64,000 nt of DNA. It comes from Escherichia coli (GTDB taxonomy: Bacteria; Pseudomonadota; Gammaproteobacteria; Enterobacterales; Enterobacteriaceae). Made by a program: the position numbers and the translations under genes. Within the stretch, counting starts at the first letter, position 1. Each line of letters begins with the position of its first letter. The notes below the pieces were generated by a model. That model made no database searches and was not told where the DNA came from. It was given only the letters and a program-made list of their open reading frames with translations. Location: assembly GCF_044324875.1 (NCBI RefSeq), contig NZ_CP172185.1, one strand, 5' to 3'. Shown here in pieces: positions 8,626 to 9,306 of this stretch.

Positions 8626-9306
8626 ACGTTAACAACGACCGACTCTTCACTGTGCAAAATTGTGTCAGGTAGTCCCTCTGCGTTCAATTCCAGGGTCTGC
8701 TTTGAGCGAGAAAGAGGGGACTATCCAGCAATGGAGATCACCCAAAAGAAAAAACCACCTGACTCCCTCGACAACCTTCATCCGGGCATTTAGCCTCAAT
8801 CAACATGTTTATATCTGTCAGGTTACTTCATGATGAAAACTGATCATCATCGTTGTTTTTGTTGCAATAGTAGAATACGCGTATTTATTCCTCCATCTCT
8901 ATTAATAACGGCAATAAACTGTTCACTTCACTGATATTTAAAATATGTATCCTTTTCAAGCTGTTCAGCGGCGTAAGAAAAAGTATTAATTATGAATTCG
9001 ACGATTTAACCATTTCAGTCTGATTGGTAATCATCTATGATTAATGCTGGTCTATTGATTACGCCAGCATTAACCGCTTAGGGATGTATTCTTCCTGTCC
9101 ATATAGCCCTCGAAAAAGAGAGAAAATAAAACTGTGTCCAATATTAATTTACCACTTCAGACCGAAACATCGGTGGAATTAGCAGGACGACTGGTACAGA
9201 AGGATGGTATAGCGTCATTTGTCGGGCATTCCATTGCCATAATAATGACAATTTTGAAGCAATAGCCGTGCTTCTTGATCATGTCTTAAAAATTATACCA
9301 TGAGCC

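Follow-up and report, generated by a model that had tools for sequence, protein, structure and literature searches.

The gene-free DNA described here, which lies between a LysR-family gene and a convergent DUF1471-like gene in Escherichia coli, is very probably non-functional fossil DNA, that is, a mosaic of gene remnants produced by successive deletions within a decaying island beside the tRNA gene thrW. Remnants of the start of a second LysR gene and of ykgR, ykgO and ykgL were identified in it, joined to one another by deletions, and the earlier note on this DNA, which had named an island-remnant pseudogene region as one of several readings, was right in this respect. The items described at that time (the gap itself, its AT-richness, an inverted repeat and a cysteine-rich micro-ORF) are all present, yet none of them goes beyond what is expected by chance.

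The gap and its borders

The window is the whole stretch of 64,000 nucleotides that was analysed, and all positions refer to it. The LysR gene stops at 8625 and the minus-strand DUF1471-like ORF at 9307, which leaves a gap of 681 bp (8626-9306). Its longest internal ORF has 57 aa (8660-8833), in agreement with the earlier statement that no ORF of 60 codons or more lies between the two stops. The stretch had also been called AT-rich, and this was confirmed, the GC content being 39.4% in the gap and 33.8% in the sub-segment 8837-9105 versus 52.1% in the whole 64-kb window. The features found in and around the gap are given in Table 1.

Table 1. Features of the gap and of its two bordering genes, with window coordinates
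Feature	Coordinates	Strand	Basis and remarks
LysR1, intact LysR-family regulator	7741-8625	+	ORF; PGAP annotation in relatives; left border of the gap
Spacer	8626-8690		Holds left hairpin arm 8670-8680; outside the inter-genus cassette
Imperfect hairpin	8668-8725	+	Stem arms 8668-8680 and 8713-8725; MFE, haplotype comparison
LysR2 5' remnant	8691-8839	+	~140 bp of upstream sequence, ATG 8833-8835, first 2-4 codons (MKTD vs MKND)
Cys-rich micro-ORF, 34 codons, MMKTDHHRCFCCNSRIRVFIPPSLLITAINCSLH	8830-8934	+	ORF list; CFCC at residues 9-12
ykgR pseudogene remnant, codons 12-33 and stop, KLIIIVVFVAIVEYAYLFLHLY	8837-8905	+	tblastn, NF041474 profile, PGAP in relatives
3' flank of ykgR, homologous to the native locus	8906-8953	+	Ends at deletion joint
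ykgO remnant, last 11 codons and stop, FQAVQRRKKKY	8954-8989	+	blastn; tblastn to YkgO residues 36-45
ykgL 3'-end remnant, ~24 codons, with stop codon and frameshift	9027-9097	-	tblastn, blastn
Remnant of post-ykgO hairpin (apparent ykgMO terminator in the native locus)	9041-9073		U-tract lost
3' flank of DUF1471-like gene	9106-9306		Holds 43-codon GTG ORF 9134-9265
DUF1471-like hypothetical protein gene	9307-9585	-	ORF; PGAP: 'hypothetical protein'; right border of the gap

The left neighbour, LysR1, stands at the right-hand end of an MFS-hydrolase-LysR cassette that is shared with Kluyvera, Enterobacter and Citrobacter at 74-78% nucleotide identity. The homology of the cassette ends at the LysR stop (window 8621-8629), with different genes next in each genus, and the DNA from 8626 onwards is therefore not part of the cassette. 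The spacer also lies outside the homology with the upstream regions of Pantoea and Klebsiella LysR genes described below, since the long form of that region in O157 aligns only from the equivalent of ~8691 onward.

For the right neighbour, the profile matches behind the label DUF1471 are weak (PF07338, E 0.06; BhsA, E 0.002). The ORF shares 70% nucleotide identity with Klebsiella plasmid genes annotated as DUF1471, a homology that begins only at ~9320. Its 3' flank (9106-9306) showed no similarity to the native ykgR locus and no protein family match, and the GTG ORF that it holds is interrupted by a stop codon in the alignment with O157.

Remnants of ykgR, ykgO and ykgL

YkgR is a 33-aa membrane protein that has been detected experimentally and is recognised by SRP (PMC7549839). 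In tblastn, the ykgR remnant was identical to K-12 YkgR at 20 of 22 residues, and it matched positions 12-33 of the 33 positions of profile NF041474 (E 3.5e-9) with 36.1 bits, which is under the curated cutoff of 40 bits; K-12 YkgR itself scores 78.1 bits. The conserved hydrophobic helix of YkgR, LINIVVFVAIVEYAYLFLHFY, is retained in the window-type remnant (20/22 residues); in copies of the O157 type it is altered by L>P, I>T and F>S. At the nucleotide level, window 8837-8953 is 91% identical to positions 1501-1617 of the K-12 locus (L004), a segment that begins with ykgR codons 12-33 and ends with 48 nt of the 3' flank. An in-frame TGA (8834-8836) stands immediately 5' of codon 12 and is followed by no ATG, GTG or TTG start; the start codon and the N-terminal segment MKENKVQQISH are missing. 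At the same position in eight fetched relatives, PGAP/RefSeq annotates 'small membrane protein YkgR, incomplete, missing N-terminus'. The remnant is a second, dead copy of ykgR.

The remnants continue downstream. Window 8953-9102 is 74% identical to K-12 L004 2300-2450 (E = 4e-22), a segment that sits 680 bp further on in K-12 and comprises the end of ykgO, the hairpin that follows it and the 3' end of ykgL. The remnant locus has lost ykgM together with its promoter region, as well as ykgO codons 1-35. Two ykgL fragments (9083-9027 and 9097-9071) matched YkgL residues 52-75 in tblastn. The order and orientation of the remnants, with ykgR followed by ykgO and then by ykgL on the minus strand, match those of the native locus, ykgM being the missing member. 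The post-ykgO hairpin retains a 10-bp perfect inverted repeat and folds with z -3.0 versus z -4.7 in K-12, where UUUUCC follows the stem; the two versions differ by one compensatory T>C / A>G change.

Other relatives of this second copy were sought in several collections. Among species-representative genomes, ykgR-like DNA was present only in two tiny contigs from unrelated Firmicutes assemblies, which are presumably E. coli contamination. A HMMER search with K-12 YkgR against 1.84 billion representatives gave nine clusters, all of them E. coli-like variants or chimeras, and no full-length version of the second copy was found among these representatives. Two candidates were rejected, as P0129 proved to be an error-laden native locus and P0128 a native ykgR broken near a contig end. 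No intact second copy of ykgM or ykgO in E. coli was found among the matches listed; the extra ykgM/ykgO matches traced among these were an IS66 split in O157 and the first 80 nt of the query beside an ogr/Delta-like prophage gene.

Every listed genome that carries the remnant also keeps the native ykgR locus. In O157:H7 the two are ~22 kb apart in the same orientation, the order being native ykgR, ykgMO, ecp, pao, MFS, hydrolase, LysR and remnant. Such co-occurrence would suit an antisense RNA, made by minus-strand read-through from the DUF1471-like gene and pairing in trans with the native ykgR mRNA. The 117 nt of 91% identity to native ykgR and the lack of a terminator-like site downstream of the DUF1471-like gene are compatible with this idea, but the proposal is purely inferential, and the remnant accumulates substitutions freely. 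Moreover, the native ykgR of O157 is itself frameshifted, so that no target for the antisense RNA would exist there. We therefore consider this explanation exceedingly improbable.

A lost LysR gene and the origin of the micro-ORF

In the plasmid search, the DNA immediately before the ykgR remnant was 77-78% identical to the 5' region of a LysR gene carried by Pantoea and Klebsiella plasmids, namely P. vagans pVag1 (WP_135910949.1), P. agglomerans and K. michiganensis; on pVag1 the coding sequence of this homologue begins at L046 2616. The match had E = 1e-22 for window 8720-8849, and the O157 form gave a match of 170 nt with E = 4e-31. The start of the plasmid gene, ATG AAA AAT GAT (MKND), aligns with ATG AAA ACT GAT (MKTD) in the window. 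We refer to this lost second regulator gene as LysR2. Its coding sequence past codon ~3 is absent from the window, from O157 and from GN02270, and the HTH_1 and LysR substrate-binding domains are absent from the remnant. A tblastn search with the Pantoea LysR protein found only the unrelated LysR1 at 31% identity. A LysR pseudogene fragment located downstream in GN02270 was considered as the body of LysR2 and rejected, as it showed no similarity, and a search of the phage collection gave no match.

Two ways of extending the homology to native ykgR upstream of 8837 were also tried and rejected. One assumed a 5-nt insertion and the other an in-frame deletion of ykgR codons 3-12; neither alignment was better than those of shuffled sequences (P 0.16-0.58), and both were later superseded by the LysR2 match.

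The ~35-codon frame with a CFCC cluster that had been noticed near 8830 was seen again and has 34 codons. At the joint, LysR2 reads ATG-AAAAA-TGAT, ykgR reads CAT-AAA-CTGAT and the window reads ATG-AAAA-CTGAT; the run of A's thus has a length of five, three and four, respectively, and the motif AAA(A/C)TGAT is shared. Because four A's stand at the joint, the frame set by the LysR2 ATG is shifted by one base relative to that of the ykgR remnant, and the micro-ORF continues for 10 codons beyond the ykgR stop. The CFCC cluster corresponds to the ykgR helix codons GTT GTT TTT GTT GCA (VVFVA), which in the shifted frame give TGT TTT TGT TGC; with the preceding codon the reading is (C)GT TGT TTT TGT TGC, i.e., RCFCC. 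The micro-ORF is thus a junction ORF, in which the LysR2 start codon has been joined out of frame to ykgR.

An ORF of this size is not unusual. With the composition of the gap, 681 bp should hold 2.45 ATG ORFs of at least 34 codons on average, and one or more occurred in 94% of simulated sequences. Only a weak AGG lies 10 nt upstream, and no promoter-like site was found.

Selection and conservation in the micro-ORF

Native ykgR and the remnant differ at eight nucleotides. In the ykgR frame five of these differences are synonymous and three are non-synonymous, whereas in the micro-ORF frame, in which the native sequence has a stop, none of the eight is synonymous. This pattern (5:3 versus 0:8) indicates that the sequence evolved as ykgR.

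Variation within the remnant was studied in 35 copies, made up of the window, eight genomes selected to span the range of identities and 26 contigs from metagenomes. These contigs were found by an exact 26-nt pattern inside the micro-ORF; variants within those 26 nt are therefore unsampled and variation there is under-represented in the counts. The first ATG of the micro-ORF is ATT in 28 of the 35 copies and the second (8833) is invariant. The frame is open in 33 of the 35 copies. Its disruptions are a nonsense change in one lineage (L034), a stop-loss in 4/35 copies (O102:H6 type) and a frameshift in metagenome contig L025, in which the loss of one A brings ATG AAA in frame with ykgR. Regarding the conservation of the micro-ORF, which had been proposed as a check, the openness of the frame was thus largely upheld, but it is accompanied by these disrupting variants and no purifying selection in the micro-ORF frame was detected in the 35 copies. 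Of 13 substitutions, 6 were synonymous in this frame, against an expectation of 4.7 that takes account of mutation type and base composition (P = 0.32). A first count, in which five of eight substitutions were synonymous, had suggested an excess; this excess is only apparent, because the T-rich second positions of the membrane helix become third positions in the shifted frame. Within the same 35 copies, damaging changes were seen in the ykgR frame (L>P, I>T twice and F>S).

The micro-ORF could still be viewed as a newly born chimeric small protein, made from the start region of LysR2 and using its cysteine cluster for metal or redox chemistry. The invariant second ATG, the mostly open frame and the fact that the ATG and ~140 bp upstream of it are an authentic LysR gene 5' region speak for such a protein, as did the first count of synonymous substitutions. 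Against it are the disappearance of the synonymous excess after correction, the nonsense, stop-loss and frameshift variants, the replacement of the first ATG in most copies, and the weak AGG with no promoter-like site. In addition, no Pfam or NCBIfam match was obtained for the micro-ORF, its five peptide forms had no occurrence among 15 billion predicted proteins (native YkgR is present there), its size is expected by chance and the literature search found no paper with the peptide. A chimeric protein is hence very improbable, and there is an equally small chance of gene birth from the wreckage, by which a surviving LysR2 promoter and start would have led to a function acquired in the ~17% of E. 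coli that carry the remnant. The small protein suggested by the earlier note was not substantiated.

It could also be supposed that the ykgR remnant is a switchable gene, in which the loss of one A from AAAA (8836-8839), or +1 slippage, yields a 23-residue membrane peptide, MKLIIIVVFVAIVEYAYLFLHLY. Precisely this loss of one nucleotide is seen in contig L025, where a frame of 23 codons is open, and the transmembrane part of the window type is identical to YkgR at 20 of 22 residues. However, the deletion was seen in only 1/35 copies and in a contig with a coverage of 1.66x, so it could possibly be a sequencing error. Efficient ribosomal slippage needs a run longer than four A's. The O157-type copies carry helix-damaging changes, the product would lack the 11 N-terminal residues of YkgR and a good ribosome binding site, and the 23-aa sequence is absent from the 15 billion predicted proteins. 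A switchable gene is therefore extremely unlikely.

The inverted repeat

The inverted repeat tagtccctctg ... agaggggacta, which had been singled out in the earlier note as part of a long hairpin, was located at 8670-8680 and 8713-8723; its 10 pairs are interrupted by a 1-nt bulge and enclose a loop of ~32 nt. It lies 43 nt past the LysR stop on the sense strand. The plus strand folds at -27.1 kcal/mol (z = -2.08), and the minus strand gave z = -0.8. This energy is in the best 4% of GC-matched 86-nt windows in the 64 kb and in the best 21% overall; the rank is ordinary, and dozens of equal or better folds exist in the 64-kb window.

Signals expected of an RNA gene or a terminator were sought around the hairpin. 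The stem is followed by uccagcaaugg with no U-tract, which together with a loop of more than 30 nt means that the hairpin is not terminator-like. No terminator-like site was predicted in 8500-9700 and no promoter-like site on the plus strand before 9219. The covariance-model search that had been recommended for small RNAs returned no credible Rfam family for 8626-9306 even at E <= 10, the only matches being to two snoRNA models (E 1.5 and 8.8), far under their gathering scores.

The comparison of 11 haplotypes gave a similar picture. None of the 27 pairs showed a compensatory change; two pairs vary, both by breaking only, and an uncompensated C>A is present in three haplotypes. Indels of 9 nt and 18 nt occur inside the hairpin, and the z-score of the fold ranges from -0.5 to -4.25 (PCN033 type), while the arms are nearly invariant in sequence. 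The right arm, AGAG/GGGACTA, straddles the joint of the 18-nt deletion. As the 18 nt are kept in Pantoea and Klebsiella, they are ancestral and the window allele carries the deletion. The left arm belongs to the spacer and not to the LysR2-homologous DNA; the two arms are of different ancestry.

With the 18 nt, an older and smaller hairpin (GTCCGCT...AGCGGAC) also lost its right arm. This older hairpin is shared with the plasmid homologues and has one compensatory pair.

A functional RNA element, acting either on the 3' end or stability of the LysR mRNA or as a small RNA, might be inferred from the position of the hairpin just after the LysR stop on the sense strand, from folds better than those of shuffled sequences in the window type and especially in the PCN033 type, and from the near invariance of the arms. 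Such an element is very improbable, since the hairpin has no U-tract, a long loop and no Rfam match, its paired positions change only by breaking pairs, the two indels alter the fold between haplotypes, the right arm runs across a deletion joint and the arms differ in ancestry. The LysR cassette of other genera has no hairpin, and the folding energy is ordinary for the window. The earlier proposal of a small RNA was consequently not sustained.

Island context and distribution

The locus stands beside the tRNA-Thr gene thrW (10493-10565, minus strand), with proA at 10680-11933, and SDR and integrase gene fragments adjoin the gap. In K-12 the thrW site is occupied by prophage CP4-6. The ykgR remnant is present in 910 of 5426 complete E. 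coli genomes (~17%). Other E. coli alleles break off at ~9068, where an AbiEii toxin gene follows, or at ~9185, and in GN02270 the remnant leads almost directly to thrW. The window holds no second, att-like copy of the thrW 3' end besides that of the tRNA gene itself, and no intact integrase was seen.

Discussion

The remnants probably arose by successive deletions. The ancestor would have carried a second LysR-family gene and a second ykgR-ykgM-ykgO-ykgL module downstream of the MFS-hydrolase-LysR cassette. One deletion probably fused the beginning of LysR2 with ykgR codon 12 at AAA(A/C)TGAT, giving rise to the micro-ORF of 33-34 codons. Another would have begun 48 nt after the ykgR stop, ended with ykgO codon 35 and eliminated ykgM on the way. 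Additional breaks would have truncated ykgL. A lineage-specific deletion of 18 nt placed AGAG beside GGGACTA and thereby extended a fortuitous complementarity with TAGTCCCTCT, a stretch of unrelated DNA situated 40 nt upstream, so that a 'long hairpin' appeared. The homologies, joints and reading frames and the lack of selection or covariation were observed directly; what we infer is the sequence in which the deletions took place and that the DNA has no function.

Some observations stand against a purely fossil status. Besides its mostly open frame and invariant second ATG, the micro-ORF still has the authentic start of an earlier gene, and some transcription or translation is possible; with no intrinsic terminator between the LysR gene and the micro-ORF, the latter is probably included in read-through transcripts. 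The remnant also persists in ~17% of complete genomes, which linkage to neighbouring intact genes would explain equally well.

The gap may be compared with several known systems. Its ykgR remnant shares codons 12-33, the stop and 48 nt of 3' flank with K-12 ykgR (NF041474, PF28062), but has no promoter, ribosome binding site, start codon or first 11 codons. With the native ykgM-ykgO genes (type B ribosomal proteins L31/L36) and ykgL the gap has in common the gene order, the tail of ykgO, the hairpin and the 3' end of ykgL, whereas ykgM and ykgO codons 1-35 are lacking, ykgL is broken and the identity is 74%. To the LysR genes of Pantoea and Klebsiella plasmids it aligns over ~150 bp of upstream sequence, the ATG (at which the micro-ORF starts) and the first codons, but the coding sequence past codon ~3 is missing from the window. 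The thrW/proA site, the integrase and SDR fragments and the strain-variable content resemble those of tRNA-associated islands, although the window has no intact integrase or att repeat. The hairpin of the gap is similar to Rho-independent terminators in being a stem-loop 3' of a gene and between convergent genes; however, such terminators typically have a G+C-rich stem, a loop of 3-8 nt and a U-tract, in contrast to the loop of more than 30 nt and the missing U-tract found here. Unlike the small RNA families of Rfam, it has neither a covariance-model match nor covariation.

RefSeq already marks the core of the stretch, the ykgR pseudogene. The remnants of the LysR start, ykgO and ykgL carry no annotation and are ordinary pseudogene debris. 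The locus carries little biological weight, and its value is that of a cautionary example. A cysteine-rich micro-ORF may be no more than the Val and Phe codons of a transmembrane helix in another reading frame; a small deletion can create a 'long hairpin'; and base composition by codon position can alone mimic an excess of synonymous changes. For E. coli itself, the LysR-start, ykgO and ykgL remnants would be a record of a second ykgR-ykgMO-ykgL module that was once present in some lineages of the species.

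Hairpins in the gap

The inverted repeat that follows the ykgO remnant is perfect over 10 bp, with arms TTAATGCTGG and CCAGCATTAA. Its counterpart in K-12 is a 16-bp hairpin with a U-tract, which lies 3' of ykgO and overlaps the 3' coding end of ykgL. Compared with K-12, the repeat shows one compensatory pair (T>C and A>G), of which the G-U intermediate was seen in strain 19KM1831, and the U-tract is absent from the window copy. The repeat is what remains of this hairpin.

Another small hairpin, GGTCCGCTTT...AAGCGGACTT, located about 130 nt upstream of the start of LysR2 (the lost second LysR-family gene), was common to several genera. 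It contained one C-G/U-A compensatory pair and, in the E. coli alleles, several breaks. In the window, its right arm is gone through the 18-nt deletion.

Features of the window and the compared loci
Feature	Position	Strand	Remarks
MFS transporter, alpha/beta hydrolase and LysR genes	window 5182-8629		compared loci L013-L017
Small hairpin GGTCCGCTTT...AAGCGGACTT	L046 2456-2500; L047; equivalent to window ~8693-8716		Pantoea and Klebsiella plasmids (L046, L047); also E. coli long-form alleles
A run (AAAA)	window 8836-8839		one A fewer in L025
Inverted repeat	window 9041-9073		after ykgO remnant
GTG ORF	window 9134-9265		43 codons; part of gap without assigned origin
SDR oxidoreductase fragment	within window 9753-10475	minus	without N-terminus
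Integrase fragment	within window 9753-10475		C-terminal ~50 codons

Variants and database matches of ykgR

The shortened A run was found in a human-gut metagenome contig (L025, 1.66x coverage), where the loss places ATG AAA in the frame of the ykgR remnant and gives an open frame of 23 codons, MKLIIIVVFVAIVEYAYLFLHLY, ending in a stop. This could be a true variant or a sequencing error.

In a native ykgR at the start of an E. coli contig (GCA_002809875.1; L044 1-162), the first 11 codons were replaced by MFVLRFRGPVY...; the foreign sequence, located at a contig end, begins roughly 10 nt 5' of codon 12. This was probably caused by insertion of a mobile element in the 5' part of the gene; the breakpoint is near that of the remnant in the window, but not identical to it. 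In O157:H7 (JEONG-1266, L012 8720-11370), the native ykgR itself carries a frameshift according to its annotation, and ykgR and ykgM are separated by ISEc8, an element of the IS66 family.

When the ykgR DNA pattern was searched against the GTDB species representatives, the only matches were contigs of 403 bp and 264 bp (L005 and L006) in the assemblies of Sulfoacidibacillus thermotolerans and Alkalicoccobacillus porphyridii. Both contigs are most likely contamination from E. coli, whose own representative did not appear among the matches. Two PLSDB records of 4.9 Mb, NZ_CP141089.1 and NZ_CP134663.1, contain this chromosomal locus and look like chromosomes entered as plasmids.

Surrounding genes and island remnants

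The MFS-hydrolase-LysR cassette is conserved in Kluyvera, Enterobacter and Citrobacter, with the MFS gene missing in Citrobacter. On the right, the cassette ends sharply with the stop codon of LysR; the genes past that edge vary by genus.

The GTG ORF had no family match and was absent from the protein collection searched; in the O157 allele it is interrupted by TAG. The SDR and integrase fragments, which directly adjoin tRNA-Thr, are further remnants of the island. O157 has an intact SDR gene, after which come another LysR gene and a P4-like element.
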